A stretch of DNA of 24,000 bases from Streptomyces sp. NBC_00576 (GTDB lineage Bacteria; Actinomycetota; Actinomycetes; Streptomycetales; Streptomycetaceae), in the NCBI RefSeq assembly GCF_036345175.1, contig NZ_CP107780.1:4958871-4982870 (forward strand). Direction: 5' to 3'. The stretch's first letter is position 1. Each line of letters starts with the position of its first letter. Under the pieces are notes generated by a model. That model was given only the letters and a program-made list of their open reading frames with translations, ran no database searches and was not told where the DNA came from. The position numbers were made by a program, and so were the translations under genes. Shown here piece after piece: positions 774-9,402 of this stretch.

Positions 774-3700
774 TCACCGCGCGACCGCCCCCGTCGCCTT
801 GCTCACCGCGACCCCGTCCTGGTGCCCGGCCCGCCGCGCGGTCACCTTCACGGTGATCTTCTTGCCCTTCTGGGCCGCCTTCAGCACGAGCGAGGACTTG
901 GTCGCCCCCGCGATCGCCTGACCGCCCGCGTACCACTGGTACGCGTACGACGTCGCCGCCGGACTCCACGTCCCGGCCGACGTCTTGAGCGCCTTCCCGA
1001 CCTTCGCCGTCCCGCCGATCACCGGCAGCTTCGTCGCCTTGGGCGCATCCCCCCTCGCCACGGCCACCGCGGCCGAGGTCGCCGACCCGCTCTTCCAACC
1101 GCCCTTGACCGCGGTGACGGTCACACTCAGCTTCCTGCCGAGCTGCCCGGCGGGAACGACATACGCCGCCGCAGTCGCCCCCGCTATCGCCTTGCCGTCG
1201 GCCTTCCACTGGAAGCTGTACGAGGACGGAGCCGCCGACCAACTCCCGGGCGCCGCCGTCACCTTGGCACCGACCTTGACCGTGCCGGTCACCTTCGGCG
1301 GGGCGGTGCTCCTCAGCTGGGGCTCGGCCACGGTGAAGAGTCCCCGCTGGAACTCCCGGCCCCGCGCGATCACGCTGACGCTCCACGTACCGGTAGCGGT
1401 TTCGCCGGTCAGGTCGAGGGTCGCCGTCAGCGTCCGGTTGTCCGGGGACACGCCTACCGTCCGCGCGGTCAACGTCCTACCGGACTGCGCCAGCCTGACC
1501 ACGGAATCCGCCGGAAGCGCGGCCCCCGTCACCGTGAGAGTGACCTTCGTGCCGGCGGCTCCCGTCGCCGGACTCACCCCTGTGACATCGAGTTTCTCAG
1601 GGCCGCACTGCGCATACGAGCACACCAGCCTGGCGCTGTAGGAGGTAGCGGACACCTTCTCCGGCAGACCGAGCACGAACACACTCGGAGTACTCGCCCA
1701 GGATGAGCCGAGCGGGTCGCAGTCGTAACCCTCCGGGATGTAGTGGATGCAGCCATTGGCCCAGGTCGACGCGTTGTACAGCGCAGGCACCGCCGTGTCC
1801 GCGGCGCCGGTCGTGTCCTTGATCTCCGTCTTGAAGTGGTCGAACCCGGACGTCGGCAGCGCCGCACACACCGCCGTGTGCGCCTCGTCCAGCCTGCCCA
1901 GGATCGGCCCATACCCGTACGCCACCGACGGCACCTTCACGCACTCCGGCGCCGGACCCTCGGCGGTCGCGATCCGCAGGGCGTCCAAACGGAAGGCATC
2001 CGGCGCCCTCAGGGTCGCCGGGACCTGCACGAGGACCTGGTGACTGGTGGAACCGGTAACCGCACAGGCGTTGTTGCGATACGAGCACTCCGTGTTCCCG
2101 TCAGCACCGATGACCGCGATGTTGCCGGTGCCCAGAGCGTCCCGCACGTTCATGTGCACCACATCCGTGGCGCCCGACGTGGTGATCCGACGGCAACTGA
2201 GGGTGCCCGGACCTCCATACGCACCGACAAGGGACGCGCCACCCACCTTGGCCGCCGCACTCGTGACACAACCCGCCGAACCAGCGCTAGCCGTCACGTC
2301 CCGGCGCGCCAGCGTGTACGTGGCGACCTTGTCCCAGCCATTGACGAGCACCGTGTGAGCGCTGCCCGGAGTGAGTCCACACACCGTCCAGCCATTGGTG
2401 GTGGCCCAGCGTTCACAGACCTGCTTGCCCGTGGAGTCCACCACCGAGAAACCCGCGCTCACCCCGCCCGAGGTGGCGATCAACTGGAAAATCTCCGCCT
2501 TCGTGTGTCCGTTCGCCGGGATGGTCAGACAGTGCGCGAAGACACCGCCCCCAGTGGCGAAGGACGCCTTGGCACCGTTCACGTCGAAACTACCGGCAGG
2601 CAGTTCGGCACAACCCTGCGCAGTGTCCGTACGAACCAGGTCGATGCCGTACGCCCCCGCCAACGTCCCAGAATCCGAGTGAACCAGCAGACGATAGGGC
2701 GCAGTGCCGGTGGGCGCACACGTGCCCGCACTCAGCGTCGTCTCGTCGCACTGCCCGACACCCGCGCTGTCGACAACCTCGTAGTCCGCATCAGGCCGCC
2801 CGCCGAGCGAGGTCAACGCCCCGAACGGCACCCCCCGCGCACCCGGCAGCACCAGACAGTCGTACTGACCCGGACCACCGAACTCACCCTGGTACAGCCC
2901 CCAACCGACCGTACGACACCCCTCGGTGCCCGTCCGGTCGAGGAACACCGTGGCGTACTCCGAGTCGCTGACCGCAGTGGGGTCACCCACCACCAGCGTG
3001 TACGTACCGGCGGCGGGAAACGCGCACCAACCACCCGCCTGACAAACCTTCCTGCCCGCACCGTCATAGACGTACGACCACAGATCGTCGCCCTGCTCAC
3101 GGCCGATCGGATTCACCAGATACCGGCCCGCGGCGAGCACACTCAGCGAACGGCAACGCACCCCACCCGCCTCGGGCACCGTCCCATACACACCGACCGC
3201 CACCACCGGGCAACCCTCGGCGTCAGACAGCCTTCGGACCTGGAACTCGTAGTCATACGGCAGCTGGTCGTCGTTGAAGACGTACGACAGCACGCGATAC
3301 GGGCCATCACCAGGCAGCACACACCCGTCCTCGTCGTCGCGCACACAGATGTCCGTACCGCTCGCGTCAGTGATCCACTGCCGTACATTCGAGCCGCGAT
3401 AGACGACAACACGCTCACCCGGCGCGCCCCGGAACGACCGGCAGTCGACCTCGACCGGGCTGACCGCCGTACCGCTCGTCACCGGCTGCCCCCAGGACGT
3501 ACCGACAGGCTCGGCACAACCCTCGGACCCGGCCAGCGCGACAACGGCCAGCTGATAGTCCGTGGCCCCGGAGGAACCCGAGTTGTCGACCACCACGGTG
3601 TACACACCCGCCGCCGGAAAATCACACCACCGCACGCCGTAACCAGGCGCCGTGCACTCGACGGACGCACCGTCGGCATCCACGACATTCGCGTAAGCGC

Positions 3701-3986
3701 CGTCCCGGGGATCCTCCACAGACACCTGATGCCGCCCCGCCTGGGCCGTCACCGTGTAACAGGCCTGCGCCCCACCCTCCAGCGTGCCCCGGGCCACGGC
3801 CTCCCCCGGATCACCGAACGGCGCGAGCGCGAGCGGCGCACACTCCGACTCAACGGCCCGCGCGGGCGCCGCCCCCACCGTCGTCGTCAACGTCAACAAC
3901 GAGCCGAGCAGCGCGACCAGGACGGCCCAGACGAGCAGCGGCACCGCCGACCGCCCGCGTCTTTCGGACAGGCAGAAGCCAAACAT
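774..3986 (-). CDS. Large secreted Cys-rich repeat protein: 7 PPC-like beta-sandwich modules, an IPT/TIG-like domain and 2 Ig-like repeats; no recognisable catalytic domain
   Basis: The track ORF is 774..4106. I place the start at ATG 3986 (MFGFCLSERRGRSAVPLLVWAVLVALLGSLLTLTTTVGAAPARA|VE), which has a GGGGGGA Shine-Dalgarno 5 nt upstream and gives a Sec signal peptide with an AxA site. Seven ~100-aa modules each carry 4 Cys in the recurring pattern GC...xC...C...C. Confidence 0.8.
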   Translation of the reverse strand: MFGFCLSERRGRSAVPLLVWAVLVALLGSLLTLTTTVGAAPARAVESECAPLALAPFGDPGEAVARGTLEGGAQACYTVTAQAGRHQVSVEDPRDGAYANVVDADGASVECTAPGYGVRWCDFPAAGVYTVVVDNSGSSGATDYQLAVVALAGSEGCAEPVGTSWGQPVTSGTAVSPVEVDCRSFRGAPGERVVVYRGSNVRQWITDASGTDICVRDDEDGCVLPGDGPYRVLSYVFNDDQLPYDYEFQVRRLSDAEGCPVVAVGVYGTVPEAGGVRCRSLSVLAAGRYLVNPIGREQGDDLWSYVYDGAGRKVCQAGGWCAFPAAGTYTLVVGDPTAVSDSEYATVFLDRTGTEGCRTVGWGLYQGEFGGPGQYDCLVLPGARGVPFGALTSLGGRPDADYEVVDSAGVGQCDETTLSAGTCAPTGTAPYRLLVHSDSGTLAGAYGIDLVRTDTAQGCAELPAGSFDVNGAKASFATGGGVFAHCLTIPANGHTKAEIFQLIATSGGVSAGFSVVDSTGKQVCERWATTNGWTVCGLTPGSAHTVLVNGWDKVATYTLARRDVTASAGSAGCVTSAAAKVGGASLVGAYGGPGTLSCRRITTSGATDVVHMNVRDALGTGNIAVIGADGNTECSYRNNACAVTGSTSHQVLVQVPATLRAPDAFRLDALRIATAEGPAPECVKVPSVAYGYGPILGRLDEAHTAVCAALPTSGFDHFKTEIKDTTGAADTAVPALYNASTWANGCIHYIPEGYDCDPLGSSWASTPSVFVLGLPEKVSATSYSARLVCSYAQCGPEKLDVTGVSPATGAAGTKVTLTVTGAALPADSVVRLAQSGRTLTARTVGVSPDNRTLTATLDLTGETATGTWSVSVIARGREFQRGLFTVAEPQLRSTAPPKVTGTVKVGAKVTAAPGSWSAAPSSYSFQWKADGKAIAGATAAAYVVPAGQLGRKLSVTVTAVKGGWKSGSATSAAVAVARGDAPKATKLPVIGGTAKVGKALKTSAGTWSPAATSYAYQWYAGGQAIAGATKSSLVLKAAQKGKKITVKVTARRAGHQDGVAVSKATGAVAR
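777..1298 (-). repeat. Intragenic tandem duplication: two 83-aa Ig-like repeats at the C-terminus of the secreted protein
   Basis: PKVTGTVKVGAKVTAAPGSWSAAPSSYSFQWKADGKAIAGAT... aligns with PVIGGTAKVGKALKTSAGTWSPAATSYAYQWYAGGQAIAGAT... (about 1050-1298 and 777-1025), separated by an 8-aa linker. Confidence 0.75.
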
Positions 3987-4115
3987 CGAAATCCCCCCGG
4001 AACAATGGTCGTTGAGGCCCATGAAGGCCAACGTGACGATGGTGGCACACAGATCTGACACAACACCCGCCCACATCCGGGCAACAAACGGAGGGCCAAG
4101 CGACAAGGCCGAACA

Positions 4116-4769
4116 TCAACGCCTCAACGCCCCCAGCGTCTCCCTCGGACTCCACACCTCCCCACCCCGCCGACCCGTCAACGGCCAACAGGCAAACCCA
4201 ACAAGCACCGCAGTGAAATGCCCGAGATCAGTGAACGTACGAGACAAGACGAGCGGCACCCCGTACACCACAAGAACACCCCCCACATACGCATACCGCC
4301 AAGGCCGCGCCACCCGATACGCGAGCACGGCCACCACCCCCGCCAGCCCGTAACTCACCCCGAAATCCATCGTGTCCGCCGCCGACGCCGGCGCAGAACC
4401 GTCCCGGATCGCCCGCCACACCGCACCCTGACTGACCAACGTCGCCAACACATGCGCACTCACACACACCACAAGCCACCGCACGGTCCCCAACCACCGC
4501 TCGACCGACGCATGAAACACCGAATACAGAACGAGGTACGGAGTCCACCACCCGTCGATCCACATCGCACTGGAGATCAACACCCGCACCGGATGGTCCG
4601 ACAACTCATTGATGTTCGTCGACCGCTGCCGCAGGAACTCCTCCTGAAACTCCGCCGACATGTGATGTATGGCCACCGTCGTGAAGAACAGGACCAGCAG
4701 CCACACATAAGTGCCCGGAGCACTACGAACGTAAGCCCACACCCCGCGCGGACCCGCCGAAAATCGCAT
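4116..4769 (-). CDS. Polytopic membrane protein, rhomboid-like fold (divergent)
   Basis: 217 aa with about 6 hydrophobic segments. ASVERWLGTVRWLVVCVSAHVLATLVSQG resembles the GlpG segment [23 protein letters not shown]. It has a GxSxGxxG motif (FGVSYGLAGV) and a late-TM His (DLGHFTAVLVG), but no TM2 HxxxN motif. It lies upstream of, and on the same strand as, the secreted protein gene. Confidence 0.6.
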   Translation of the reverse strand: MRFSAGPRGVWAYVRSAPGTYVWLLVLFFTTVAIHHMSAEFQEEFLRQRSTNINELSDHPVRVLISSAMWIDGWWTPYLVLYSVFHASVERWLGTVRWLVVCVSAHVLATLVSQGAVWRAIRDGSAPASAADTMDFGVSYGLAGVVAVLAYRVARPWRYAYVGGVLVVYGVPLVLSRTFTDLGHFTAVLVGFACWPLTGRRGGEVWSPRETLGALRR

Positions 4770-4775
4770 GCCCCA

Positions 4776-4781
4776 AATTTA
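4776..4781 (-). promoter_or_regulatory. -10 box TAAATT for a leaderless transcript starting at ATG 4769
   Basis: The minus strand reads TTGGCG-16 nt-TAAATT-tggggc-ATG. The 6-nt gap between -10 and start codon is typical of leaderless actinobacterial mRNAs. Confidence 0.45.
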
Positions 4782-4791
4782 CGCACGCACA

Positions 4792-4797
4792 TACAGT
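4792..4797 (+). promoter_or_regulatory. -10 box TACAGT for a leaderless transcript starting at GTG 4804
   Basis: The plus strand reads TACAGT-cgccaa-GTG with a 6-nt gap. No Shine-Dalgarno precedes either candidate start. Confidence 0.45.
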
Positions 4798-4803
4798 CGC
4801 CAA

Positions 4804-5691
4804 GTGATCCGCATCCGCGTCCCCGACGAACTGGCCGCCACACAGCTCAAGTACAACGGGGAGGCAGGCCGCGCCTTCATCACCGCACTCCCCACCCGCA
4901 CCGCCGACTTCCTCGACCACTGGAACCTACGCATCGACGGCCAGGCAATGCACGGCGTAACAGCCCTGGTCCTCCCGGTCCTACGCGCCGACGACACCCC
5001 AGCCGCCCTCAAACTCCAACTCCCGGACGACGAGAGCAAAGACGAACCAACCGCCCTCCGCCACTGGAACGGCGACCACGCCGTACGCCTCCTGGACCAC
5101 GACCCCACCACCGGAACGATGCTCCTGGAACGCCTCGACCACACCCGAATGCTGTCCCACCACCCCGACGCCCACGAAGCCACCCTGATCATCGCCGACC
5201 TCCTGACCCACCTCACCGCCATACCGGCCCCACCCGGCATCCGCCTCCTCGGCGACATCGCAGAAGGAATGCTGAACGAAGCGCCACAGGCACTCCCCCA
5301 AATCCCGGACCCCGAAGCCCGCACCCTCCTCAAGGACTGCGCGGCAGCCCTACGCGAAGTGGCCCCGGAACCCGGCGACCGCCTCCTCCACTGGGACCTC
5401 CACGACGAAAACGTCCTCGCCGCCCACCGCGCCCCCTGGCTCGCCATCGACCCGAAACCCCTGGCCGGAGACCCCGCCTTCGACCTCTGGCCGGCCATCA
5501 ACAACCGCTTCGACGCCAACGACATCCTCTGGCGCTTCGACGCCCTGACAGACGCCCTGTCCCTGGACCGCGAACGGGCACGCGCGTGGACCCTCGCCCG
5601 GGTACTCCAGAACACCCTGTGGCACATCAAAGACGGCGACCCACCAGAGGAACCGGACCTGGAGATCGCACGCCGACTACGCCACCCCTGA
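4804..5691 (+). CDS. Aminoglycoside phosphotransferase, APH(6)/streptomycin-6-kinase/hydroxyurea-resistance kinase family
   Basis: Kinase catalytic-loop motif LLHWDLHDENVL followed by IDPKPLAGDPAFDL, as in the APH(6) family. The track start ATG 4768 overlaps the divergent gene's ATG within CATG. In-frame GTG 4804 with a leaderless -10 is preferred. Confidence 0.75.
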   Translation: MIRIRVPDELAATQLKYNGEAGRAFITALPTRTADFLDHWNLRIDGQAMHGVTALVLPVLRADDTPAALKLQLPDDESKDEPTALRHWNGDHAVRLLDHDPTTGTMLLERLDHTRMLSHHPDAHEATLIIADLLTHLTAIPAPPGIRLLGDIAEGMLNEAPQALPQIPDPEARTLLKDCAAALREVAPEPGDRLLHWDLHDENVLAAHRAPWLAIDPKPLAGDPAFDLWPAINNRFDANDILWRFDALTDALSLDRERARAWTLARVLQNTLWHIKDGDPPEEPDLEIARRLRHP

Positions 5692-5720
5692 CCCACGGCG
5701 ACGGCAACCGGAACCACTAC

Positions 5721-6221
5721 TCACACAACGCACTCCATACACACCAGCCGCTCCCGCCCATCCCACGACTCGGTGACGACGAACCCGAACCGCTCGTACA
5801 GAGCAATGGCCCCGACCCGCCACTCCCACACGGACAGCCGCACGCTGCTGACCCCACCTTCCGCAGCACCCGCAAGCGCGGCACGGAGCAGACCGGAAGC
5901 GATCCCCCGCCCCCGGAACTCCGGATCCGTCCACAACCTCTTGATCTCCGACCGCCCACCGACGGAAGCGGCCACCACCACACACCCCACGGCAGCGCCC
6001 CCGCTCAGGGCCACCAGCACGACATCGCCGACGAACGCGGCCCGCGGATCCGAGATCTCCGCCCGATACCGCCCCGGCAGCCCGTCCACGTCGGCAACGG
6101 CCTGGCCCTTCTCGGCCTCGGTCCGCAGGTGATAGGCGGCCAACAGCCCGGCCAGCCCGCTATCAGCGGAAGGGGACTGCTCCGGCCAGCGGACGACCAC
6201 AACCTCGCGCTGATCAGTCAT
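5721..6221 (-). CDS. GNAT-family N-acetyltransferase
   Basis: 166 aa with acetyl-CoA-binding motif A ...RLWTDPEFRGRGIASGLLRAAL... and a typical GNAT C-terminal beta-strand (YERFGF). TATGCT-cgcgcc-ATG suggests a leaderless start. Confidence 0.85.
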   Translation of the reverse strand: MTDQREVVVVRWPEQSPSADSGLAGLLAAYHLRTEAEKGQAVADVDGLPGRYRAEISDPRAAFVGDVVLVALSGGAAVGCVVVAASVGGRSEIKRLWTDPEFRGRGIASGLLRAALAGAAEGGVSSVRLSVWEWRVGAIALYERFGFVVTESWDGRERLVCMECVV

Positions 6222-6230
6222 GGCGCGAGC

Positions 6231-6266
6231 ATAAAAGAAGCCCAGGTCAGCTCGGAGCTGACCTGG
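6231..6266 (-). terminator. Intrinsic terminator downstream of tRNA-Thr
   Basis: Minus strand: CCAGGTCAGCTC-c-GAGCTGACCTGG (12-bp arms at 6242-6253 and 6255-6266) followed by GCTTCTTTTAT. Confidence 0.65.
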
Positions 6267-6273
6267 ACTGTTG

Positions 6274-6347
6274 AGCCCCCTGTCGGATTCGAACCGACGA
6301 CCTGATCATTACAAGTGATCTGCTCGTTCCAGCTGAGCTAAGGAGGC
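6274..6347 (-). tRNA. tRNA-Thr (anticodon UGU), 74 nt, CCA not encoded
   Basis: Hand-folded cloverleaf. Acceptor GCCTCCT/AGGGGGC (one G-U pair), D stem GCTC/GAGC, anticodon stem GATCA/TGATC with loop CTTGTAA, variable loop AGGTC, T stem GTCGG/CCGAC with loop TTCGAAT, discriminator U. Confidence 0.9.
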
Positions 6348-6383
6348 ACCGCGCACCACAACGCCGTACGCGAAGGCGGCTCC

Positions 6384-6389
6384 ACTGTA
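6384..6389 (-). promoter_or_regulatory. Candidate -10 (TACAGT) for the tRNA-Thr promoter
   Basis: A TACAGT on the minus strand lies about 36 nt upstream of the mature tRNA 5' end. The -35 (TGGCCT) is weak. Confidence 0.3.
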
Positions 6390-6439
6390 CACAGAGCGCG
6401 ATCCCCCAGGCCACGGAGTTCGTGTTTGACCTGGGCGTC

Positions 6440-8150
6440 GAAAACCAAACGTAACCATCCGCGCACCCGTTCGTTGATCGCTCTGACGTGCGTTCCGAAG
6501 ATCGGATCGTCGGGGAGGGATTCATGGGGAAGCCGGGGGAGTCGGTGGAGAAGCCGAGGCTGGAAGCGGTGACAGGCGAGGAGGCCGAGCGCATCAAGCG
6601 CGAGGCCCTCGGTATCGGCGACCGCCGCAAGCACCACCAGCGCACGGCGACTCCGTTGAAGGCGCACGTCAAGGAGCCGGATACGCAGCACCGCCTGTAC
6701 CGCTTCCGCTTCTACCCGACCGCCGAGCAGGCGGAGCAGTTGGCGAAGACGTTCGGTGCCTGTCGGTGGGTCTACAACGAGGGGCTGGCGCTGCGGTCCG
6801 GGGCGTGGGAGCGGCATCGGGTGAATGTGGGGTTCGCGGAGTCGTGTCGGGCGTTGACGGGCTGGAAGCGGGCGGAGAAGACGGCATGGCTTGGGGAGGT
6901 GTCGTCGACGGTGCTGCAGCAGTCGTTGCGGCATCTCGATCAGGCGTTTGGGCGGTTCTTCAAGGGGTCGGGGAAGTATCCGCAGCGGAAGAAGAAGGGG
7001 CGTTCGCGGGATTCGGCGACGTATGTGCGGACCGGTTTCCGGTGGGTGGAGGATTTGGAGCGGCCGGGTACGGGGCTCATCACGCTGGCGAAGCAGTCGG
7101 TGCCGTTGGATGTCCGGTGGTCGCGGGCGCTGCCTGTGGGAACCGTTCCGGTGCGTTTGTCGGTGACGCGGGACCGGGCTGGGCGCTACTTCGTGTCGAC
7201 GCTCGTGGAGGAGCGGATCGCGCCTCTGCCTACCGCCTTTGTGCCGGGTTCGCTGGCGCCGATGGCGGTGGGGCTGGATCTGGGGTTGGCGTCGCTGGTC
7301 ACTCTGGACGACGGGACGAAGGTCGATCATCCGCGTCTGTTGAGGCGGTACGCGGAGAGGTTGGCGCGGTTGCAGCGGGAGCTGCACAAGAAGGTGAGGG
7401 GTTCGGCCAACCGGGACAAGGTGAGGCGGAAGATCGCGCGTCTTTACGCGCTCATCGGTGACGTTCGCAGGGACATGTTGGACCAGTTCACGACCCGCCT
7501 GGTGCGCGAGAACCAAGTGCTCGTGGTGGAGGATCTGGCCATTGCGAATCTGATGCGTCCGGCGCGTGGCAAGGGTCGTCGTCGGAAGGCGAAGTTGAAC
7601 GAGGCGATCATCGATGCCGCCTGGGGCGAGTTGTTGCGGCAGCTGCGGTACAAGTGCGAGTGGTACGGGCGGACGCTGGTGATCGTCGACCGGTTCTTCC
7701 CCTCCACGCGGCGCTGCTCCGCGTGTCATACCAAGGGTCCGAAGTTGGATGTCTGGGTCCGGGAGTGGACGTGTGCCGAGTGTGGGGTCGTCCATGACCG
7801 GGATGTGAATGCGGCTGTGAACCTTCGTGACGAGGGCCTGCGGTTGTATTGGCTGGTGGCGGCCGGGCTGCCGCCCACGAAGGGAGTACCGGCGCTGATC
7901 AGGGCGTCGGAGCTGGAGGATTGTCTGCTGGCCGCTTAGCGGCGGCTGGGTGGTACGGACCGACGGGCCGTCGGCCGGAATGCCTGTGGAGCGCGTGTAA
8001 GACCGTTCGGGCGCAGTTCATGAAGGCTGTGTGCGTCGGCGGTGCGTGATGAAGCAGGAAGCCTCACGGCAAGGTCAAAAGTGCGGTGCTCTGCCTACTC
8101 GTAAGTTTCCGTCTCGAAAATTCTCGCGAAGTTCACATCCCCCCAGGTAC
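6440..8150 (+). mobile_element. IS200/IS605-superfamily tnpB-only element (IS1341-like); boundaries approximate
   Basis: Contains only tnpB and no tnpA. Imperfect palindromes lie near both ends: CCGAAGATCGGATCGTCGG at 6495-6513 and CCGACGGgCCGTCGG at 7960-7974. Codon bias differs from both flanks. The right limit is inferred from where coding-like host sequence resumes, at about 8156. Confidence 0.35.
6524..7939 (+). CDS. tnpB: TnpB (OrfB) RNA-guided endonuclease/transposon-associated protein
   Basis: N-terminal YRFRFYPTAEQ...CRWVYN, RuvC-I GLDLG, RuvC-II VVEDL, zinc ribbon CSAC...CAEC, RuvC-III HDRDVNAAVNL. Start placed at ATG 6524, with GGAGG 5 nt upstream; the track start is GTG 6488. Confidence 0.9.
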   Translation: MGKPGESVEKPRLEAVTGEEAERIKREALGIGDRRKHHQRTATPLKAHVKEPDTQHRLYRFRFYPTAEQAEQLAKTFGACRWVYNEGLALRSGAWERHRVNVGFAESCRALTGWKRAEKTAWLGEVSSTVLQQSLRHLDQAFGRFFKGSGKYPQRKKKGRSRDSATYVRTGFRWVEDLERPGTGLITLAKQSVPLDVRWSRALPVGTVPVRLSVTRDRAGRYFVSTLVEERIAPLPTAFVPGSLAPMAVGLDLGLASLVTLDDGTKVDHPRLLRRYAERLARLQRELHKKVRGSANRDKVRRKIARLYALIGDVRRDMLDQFTTRLVRENQVLVVEDLAIANLMRPARGKGRRRKAKLNEAIIDAAWGELLRQLRYKCEWYGRTLVIVDRFFPSTRRCSACHTKGPKLDVWVREWTCAECGVVHDRDVNAAVNLRDEGLRLYWLVAAGLPPTKGVPALIRASELEDCLLAA

Positions 8151-8155
8151 TGACA

Positions 8156-8260
8156 GACGCCGAAACCCCGGGTACCGTCCTGAACCAGTCCGCGTACGTG
8201 GACTACACCACCTTCCACTACGGATCGTCCGGCACGTTCCTGCCGGTGAAGGGGGCCTAG
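8156..8260 (+). pseudogene. Orphan 3' fragment of a protein-coding gene (...DAETPGTVLNQSAYVDYTTFHYGSSGTFLPVKGA*)
   Basis: 34 codons ending at TAG 8258-8260, of which 31 have G/C at position 3 and about 50% have G/C at position 2, a typical coding signature. The frame is open only from 8105 and has no ATG, GTG or TTG start. The frame differs from msiK. Confidence 0.4.
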
Positions 8261-8265
8261 TACCC

Positions 8266-9402
<1,137 letters not shown>

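Follow-up and report, generated by a model that had tools for sequence, protein, structure and literature searches.

Transcription leaves the two DNA strands unequal, with an excess of G+T on the non-template strand (Green et al. 2003, as cited in PMC6130373), and at eukaryotic tRNA loci the associated mutagenesis affects about 40 bp of flanking sequence (Thornlow et al. 2018, PMC6130373). Long-range asymmetries that run in both directions from human CpG islands and transcription start sites have also been reported (Polak and Arndt 2009, as cited as ref. 111 in PMC3269016), and the GC skew of CpG-island promoters is linked to R-loops (PMC3787257). Here we describe a strand asymmetry of silent sites around the tRNA-Thr(UGU) gene of Streptomyces sp. 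NBC_00576, a high-GC genome of 10.97 Mb in two contigs with terminal inverted repeats. The gene lies in a 24,000-nucleotide stretch (the window, C1:4958871-4982870; positions without a contig prefix are those of the window), and the most affected part is the block of genes at 774-6221, which an earlier, sequence-only reading had taken for a foreign islet. We consider it an evenly balanced proposition that this block is the extreme case of an undescribed, lineage-specific footprint in Streptomyces, laid around each rRNA operon and a subset of tRNA genes, in which the outward strands are enriched in G+T over 8-24 kb on both sides and the encoded proteins are reshaped.

The polarity of the asymmetry reverses within a short interval. 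At third codon positions, plus-strand A/(A+T) was 0.91-1.00 over 2001-6500, 0.04-0.22 across the tnpB gene (6488-7939, plus strand; OrfB_IS605/Cas12f-like TNB by Pfam) and 0.00 in the distal two-thirds of the conserved anchor gene msiK (8086-9402, plus strand; Pfam). The sign flips inside 6222-6487, about 270 bp that hold the tRNA-Thr(UGU) gene (6273-6347, minus strand; ARAGORN) and the 140-bp spacer upstream of it (6348-6487), in which divergent promoters are presumed to lie, i.e., the asymmetry starts at the presumed transcription start region. On both sides of this interval the strand running outward 5' to 3' is G/T-rich, namely the minus strand over about 5-8 kb leftward and the plus strand over tnpB rightward, and with D = 0.81 the interval is the strongest V-type switch of the genome. 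The arms are unequal, about 5.5 kb on the left vs 1.5 kb, formed by tnpB, on the right; in a close relative (G076) they end at gene ends, those of the rhomboid-like gene and of tnpB. Within the large gene that forms the distal left arm, plus-strand A/(A+T) declines from 0.95 (2501-3500) to 0.75 (1001-1500), and GC3 falls to about 0.82 in the block vs 0.89-0.95 in its flanks.

Genes facing away from the centre use G/T-ending codons, while the only gene facing it uses C/A-ending ones. The former are the large secreted-type protein gene (774-4106, minus strand; a weak TIG domain in Pfam, homologues annotated as Tat-signal protein), with T172 vs A18 at third positions, the Rhomboid_2 family gene rho (4116-4769, minus strand; Pfam 2.6e-95), with G130, T50, C35 and A2, the GNAT acetyltransferase gene (5721-6221, minus strand; Pfam), with G87, T28, C50 and A1, and tnpB, with G295, C114, T65 and A9. 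The APH(6)-type kinase gene aph (4804-5691, plus strand; Pfam APH_6_hur, 3e-38) is convergent with the tRNA gene and has an A/C-rich coding strand that mirrors those of its neighbours: the 295 sense codons end in C (194), G (53) or A (48) and never in T. Confirmation of the strand by Pfam shows that this is the genuine reading frame and not an antisense shadow of one. For A vs T at third positions the binomial p ranged from 2e-7 to 6e-30, and every codon family was shifted, 2-fold and 4-fold alike.

The sequence-only reading had obtained its codon counts by hand, and recomputing all four figures of aph and the T and A figures of rho and the GNAT gene reproduced them exactly; its statement that tnpB has the opposite polarity in plus-strand terms is equally correct. 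Its description of the bias as confined to the islet needs qualification, because a weaker bias of the same sign extends beyond 774-6221 to about 8-12 kb from the tRNA gene. The flanking oxidoreductase fragment is balanced in A and T as described (A10/T11), but the oxidoreductase gene is still strongly C3>G3 (306 vs 102), and msiK (A17, C228, G148, T45), said to lack the bias, is ordinary in C3/G3 but has T3 well above A3, a sign that it shares with tnpB.

The reading had further proposed that the region be ranked against the whole genome, and the block and its genes indeed came out among the most extreme. Genes were called with a crude GC-frame caller (6,639 found, ranking over 6,035), and skew was expressed as K3 = (G3+T3-A3-C3)/n on the coding strand (genome mean -0.111, sd 0.147) or as R, the plus-strand residual of K3; plus-strand third-position values depend on the reading frame alone and not on the assigned strand. 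Among 21,939 2-kb windows, none exceeds the block's value of AT skew minus GC skew (0.69, genome sd 0.14), and by |R| tnpB (K3 +0.49) ranks 7th, aph 14th and the GNAT gene 20th, with rho carrying the strongest residual of the left arm (R = -0.77). No other ordinary coding DNA in the 10.97 Mb is as strand-skewed as this block. The sole larger absolute skew, at C1:5.9105-5.9155 Mb, belongs to a minus-strand gene for a protein of 1,594 aa (5910294-5915078) and is due to amino-acid repeats, i.e., an extended His-rich region of low complexity and TPR repeats at the C terminus.

Replication offers a further comparison. As in the leading/lagging skew around oriC, the outward 5'-to-3' strand is G/T-rich and the same reading, deamination of a single strand, suggests itself, but the switch centre lies 390 kb from dnaA (C1:5.353 Mb vs 4.959-4.983 Mb for the window), the skew is local and it is several-fold stronger. 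At oriC it amounted to no more than +/-0.05-0.2 near the origin and +/-0.03-0.05 as far as 200 kb away, vs +/-0.25-0.6 for the footprint at stable-RNA genes. A replichore effect was rejected, the global third-position asymmetry being about +/-0.02-0.05 with sign changes in the arms. Vertebrate mitochondrial DNA, with its heavy/light strand asymmetry, resembles the block in magnitude, in that one base is nearly absent at silent sites regardless of gene orientation and amino acids shift as well; there, however, an entire small replicon with strand-displacement replication is affected, and here a few kb of a 10.9-Mb chromosome.

Comparison across the genus shows that the skew belongs to the place. 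The tRNA-Thr(UGU) gene stands beside msiK in 43 of 44 genus loci, and homologues of the large gene, rho and aph (57-71% protein identity) adjoin this pair in many species. Plus-strand third-position skew was negative in all but two of the 45 instances of aph, rho or the large gene found left of the tRNA gene, in either orientation, the two exceptions being the aph and rho of one genome, about 10 kb away. Within 3.5 kb of the tRNA gene the mean plus-strand skew was -0.39 in both orientations, and beyond that distance -0.14/-0.19. Gene-relative values changed sign accordingly: K3 of aph was -0.25 to -0.64 where the gene converges with a nearby tRNA gene and +0.04 to +0.65 where it is inverted, that of rho ranged from +0.66 to -0.70 by orientation and distance from the tRNA gene, and that of the large gene was +0.27 here and -0.28 to -0.41 in inverted copies abutting the tRNA gene. 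Where the block sits away from the tRNA gene (G019, G009), skew was weak or near zero. The same plus-strand bias was present in unrelated genes that occupy this position in other species; over the 44 msiK-anchored loci, with varied genes left of the tRNA gene, the mean residual was -0.13 to -0.16 within 5 kb in both gene orientations and -0.05 at 8-14 kb. Gene-relative skew is reversed in inverted copies, so the asymmetry goes with position and not with the genes.

These data bear directly on the view that the skew is the relic of a replicon that existed as single-stranded DNA, a rolling-circle plasmid or an actinomycete integrative and conjugative element (AICE), integrated at tRNA-Thr in a fixed orientation. 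The block does adjoin the 3' end of a tRNA gene, where integration classically occurs, its GC3 is below that of the flanks, the region left of the tRNA gene varies between species, and in one genome (G017) an island is integrated at the same site. An att-like remnant of the tRNA 3' end is also present at 641-666 (21 of 26 bases), near where the strong A3/T3 asymmetry fades, although it is weak (local alignment score 25 vs a background mean of 19) and only suggestive. Against this, 774-6221 holds no integrase, Rep or transfer gene, the only Pfam matches being TIG (weak), Rhomboid_2, APH_6_hur and GNAT, and comparison with plasmids, AICEs and phages yielded a match for the large gene alone, at about 73% on Streptomyces linear replicons of 1-2.3 Mb, with no noteworthy phage match. 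The rho-aph pair is common to several divergent species at this tRNA gene, its inverted copies carry inverted skew, and core genes, at rRNA operons and in the proteasome operon, bear this footprint too. Moreover, tnpB, outside any att-bounded element, has the mirror skew, while nine further tnpB paralogues in the genome do not (K3 -0.26 to 0.00); for the same reason a composition intrinsic to TnpB, as might follow from single-strand transposition of IS200/IS605 elements, was rejected.

The comparison thus leaves a foreign source for the skew largely refuted, and we regard it as very improbable. The sequence-only reading had held that the asymmetry marks the islet as foreign and hints at how its source replicated; neither claim was supported, as the block is syntenic in the genus, its skew follows position and nothing in it resembles a rolling-circle plasmid, AICE or phage. 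Judged from the loci compared, the asymmetry arose where the DNA now sits, by position-dependent, strand-specific mutation pressure, and not by inheritance from a foreign replicon. The att-like remnant leaves room for the suggestion that part of the DNA once arrived by integration, which would not have been the origin of the skew.

Two side observations concern the aph orthologues. Loci with tnpB or a fragment of it between tRNA-Thr and msiK are that of the window and three others (L022, L014, L013), and the three most skewed aph orthologues (K3 -0.64, -0.57 and -0.54) are all found where tnpB or a fragment has been kept; in genomes lacking tnpB at the site, aph reached -0.41 to -0.44 at the same distance, a comparison that is phylogenetically confounded. 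In genome G059 (L058, 4260-5834) rho(+) and aph(-) form an inverted pair 6-7 kb away from tRNA-Thr, with extreme K3 (-0.70/+0.65) and two unskewed genes in between, and a recent insertion may have separated the pair from the tRNA gene.

That mutation and not selection is the cause follows from the first and second codon positions, which go along with the third: across orthologues, K1 and K2 track K3 with r = 0.90/0.83 for aph and 0.80/0.61 for rho. The shift of all codon families whatever the 5' base, the lowered GC3 and the gradient inside the large gene agree with this. Protein composition is evidently dragged along by mutation pressure, the changes needed being, on the minus strand, a loss of C and A and a gain of T and G. 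The sequence-only reading's observation that the plus strand has A>T and C>G at silent sites whatever the gene orientation therefore stands as a mutational asymmetry, and so does its deamination signature, in which minus-strand C and A are preferentially lost (G to A and T to C on the plus strand). Selection for expression-linked codon usage or transcript composition might be considered, because highly expressed Streptomyces genes favour C- and T-ending codons and the ribosomal protein genes of this genome have T3 far above A3. Yet it is the DNA strand, not the coding strand, that sets the sign, as the orientation comparison shows, aph has 16% A-ending codons, a class that is disfavoured in the genome (5%), and replacement positions are shifted too. 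Selection is the explanation to which we give the least credence of all.

A burst of hypermutation on one strand by a DNA cytosine deaminase of the toxin type or APOBEC-like, with clustered C-to-T changes, would produce a strand-coordinated, transition-type excess and lower GC3 locally, as seen here. Such an enzyme is nonetheless hard to reconcile with the enrichment of T-ending codons in all eight 4-fold families (1.4- to 4-fold), which has no preference for the 5' base, or with the A-to-G-type change that is also needed, as A3 is down about 10-fold. All open reading frames are intact and the pattern recurs at the orthologous position in species with 65-70% protein identity, for which reasons it represents a long-standing equilibrium and not an event. 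We see only a very slight chance that hypermutation is responsible.

The polarity switch at tRNA-Thr(UGU) is not an isolated case. Across the genome, plus-strand residuals are correlated between neighbouring genes of opposite strand (r = 0.24, n = 1800), and sharp V-type switches outnumber inverse ones 22 to 1 at |D| > 0.6. A tRNA gene lay within 2.1 kb of 6 of 15 V peaks and of 0 of 8 inverse peaks, the chance expectation being about 2%, and mean V was +0.065 at tRNA units vs 0.002 at random sites. The V peaks at 4.4755, 4.4875, 5.5703 and 10.2998 Mb are not positional, being just convergent pairs of C3-rich genes. V was largest at four tRNA loci, Thr(UGU), Leu(CAA), Leu(UAG) and Gln(UUG) (C1:4965143, 8492040, 6998812 and 4281218), all of them single-copy genes whose products read codons that are rare in this high-GC genome.

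The same V surrounds all six rRNA operons of the host genome, in genes of both orientations. Upstream genes had R of -0.18 to -0.30 over 0-8 kb and downstream genes +0.19 to +0.25 over 0-6 kb; the footprint is strong to about 8 kb, weak to about 24 kb and faded out at about 24-32 kb. In four other Streptomyces genomes, with 20 rRNA operons, the downstream flank was positive in 20 of 20 and the upstream flank negative in 19 of 20, with plus- and minus-strand genes agreeing closely (-0.23/-0.24 upstream, +0.18/+0.19 downstream; strand calls were confirmed by Pfam at one operon). Because the loci are orthologous between genomes, this evidence counts as six independent loci and not 26. The V was absent at seven rRNA operons in two genomes (G026, G036) of a neighbouring family of the same order, and the footprint thus appears to be lineage-specific.

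These dimensions separate the footprint from its eukaryotic counterparts. With transcription-associated asymmetry and eukaryotic tRNA loci it shares the one-strand excess of C-to-T and A-to-G changes, the association with RNA genes and the strand concerned, which is the one leaving the transcription start; unlike those loci, it covers 5-8 kb (8-24 kb at rRNA operons), overrides gene orientation and is present upstream as well. The nearest analogue in shape is the bidirectional asymmetry of human CpG islands (cited in PMC3269016), a V-shaped outward skew centred on a promoter region that covers kilobases on both sides, with sharp upward jumps lacking downward equivalents. That system is vertebrate, involves RNA polymerase II and is partly ascribed to origins, whereas the present one is bacterial, lies at stable-RNA genes and has a far larger amplitude at silent sites.

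Only processes of outward polarity fit, i.e., transcription or DNA synthesis leaving the centre. DNA ends are resected 5' to 3', and recurrent double-strand breaks at the tRNA/tnpB site followed by such resection would expose the strand running towards the centre; breakage, which predicts the opposite sign, was therefore rejected. As the likeliest cause, with about half of our confidence behind it, we propose prolonged single-strandedness of the non-template strand, brought about by RNA polymerase leaving strongly promoted, untranslated RNA genes. Around the tRNA-Thr(UGU) gene and its promoter region the outward 5'-to-3' strand would keep losing C (to T) and A (to G). Leftward, this would follow from read-through of a weak tRNA terminator into the GNAT gene, antisense through aph, and on into rho and the large gene; rightward, it would follow from transcription of tnpB and its guide RNA. 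R-loops could leave the displaced strand open to deamination, with the template strand remaining shielded or repaired, and the accessory genes here, presumably under weak codon selection, would show the pressure almost in full.

Several features of the locus are in keeping with transcription-linked exposure. The G+T-rich strand is the coding strand in four of the five genes (the large gene, rho, the GNAT gene and tnpB), and the inverted skew of aph would need dominant antisense read-through; convergent read-through transcripts have been documented in Streptomyces (PMC3765725). A hairpin resembling a terminator, its stem 14 bp long and its T-tract short (6239-6269, minus strand), stands directly downstream of tRNA-Thr, and the GNAT gene's ATG (6219-6221, minus strand) comes 13 nt past that tract. 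A separate GNAT promoter would have no space in between, so that transcription of the GNAT gene seems hardly possible except from the tRNA side, and the position of its start implies co-transcription with the tRNA. The flip at a divergent promoter region and the unequal arms, which look like transcription units, would favour transcription-linked exposure at tRNA-Thr. An amplitude above that of oriC also fits transcription, because it occurs many times per replication cycle.

Other observations weigh against this proposal. At rRNA operons the upstream arms extend over 8-24 kb and match the downstream ones in strength, which is hard to attribute to divergent transcripts, and most genes upstream are directed at the operon. 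Rare codons are read by the tRNAs with the strongest V, whose transcription need not be strong. The hairpin behind tRNA-Thr is strong, and over 66 tRNA units the stability of the downstream hairpin did not correlate with skew, so leaky tRNA terminators were rejected as a general predictor. In genomes without tnpB the msiK gene next to the tRNA gene is not G/T-rich. No clear V was seen at highly expressed protein operons (r-protein, rpoBC) or at the tmRNA, RNase P and SRP RNA genes, and a general rule of high expression was rejected on these grounds; a 6S RNA gene was looked for in the genome and not found.

A rival reading is a process resembling origin firing. R-loops at untranslated RNA genes might prime strand displacement or replisome restart outward in both directions, which we hold to be possible but unlikely, and the displaced strand, i.e., the lagging-strand template, would then, with equally little likelihood, stay single for kilobases and deaminate. 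The polarity is exactly that of a bidirectional origin, the arms of rRNA operons are equal in amplitude and range and indifferent to local gene orientation, the sharp V-type switches without matching inverse ones recall mammalian origins, and the pattern is specific to untranslated RNA genes as opposed to highly expressed protein operons. On the other hand, oriC itself is too weakly skewed for ordinary forks to give +/-0.25-0.6, which means that unusually long-lived single strands would be needed, and the arms at tRNA-Thr are very unequal and in G076 end at gene ends, like transcription units. To our knowledge, there is no evidence of oriC-independent initiation in Streptomyces.

A literature search turned up no report of flanking skew at bacterial rRNA operons, and the main paper on Streptomyces rRNA operons as sharp boundaries of chromosome domains and compartments does not mention it (PMC9723626). 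If the footprint is what we propose, stable-RNA genes host a process that exposes single-stranded DNA, be it outward transcription with R-loops or R-loop-primed strand displacement, and this process is absent or repaired in a neighbouring actinobacterial family. The footprint would be a long-term natural record of the exposed strand around rRNA and tRNA genes, and could provide a handle, from sequence only, on R-loops, read-through transcription or replication restart. Strand-skewed DNA of lower GC3 beside a tRNA gene is routinely read as horizontally acquired; here it was made in place, and composition-based island callers can be expected to give false positives at such Streptomyces sites. 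Local mutation pressure can, moreover, push one protein family, such as that of aph or the rhomboid-like gene, to opposite amino-acid compositions by orientation alone.

Two further regions of the chromosome carry comparable asymmetries. In the proteasome operon region (C1:9061586-9065847) three plus-strand genes, prcB, prcA and one for an MFS protein, are rich in G and T at their silent sites, and an embedded minus-strand LacI-family gene has C3 289, G3 17, A3 31 and T3 2 in 339 codons; its K3 of -0.89 makes it the most extreme gene of the genome, and the preceding arc and dop are of opposite sign. A second orientation-independent island at C1:8481340-8491143 comprises pepN, a lysine/ornithine N-monooxygenase gene (C3 385, G3 49 and T3 1 of 494), a minus-strand 5'-nucleotidase gene and the pyruvate kinase gene, and its polarity flips near tRNA-Leu(CAA).

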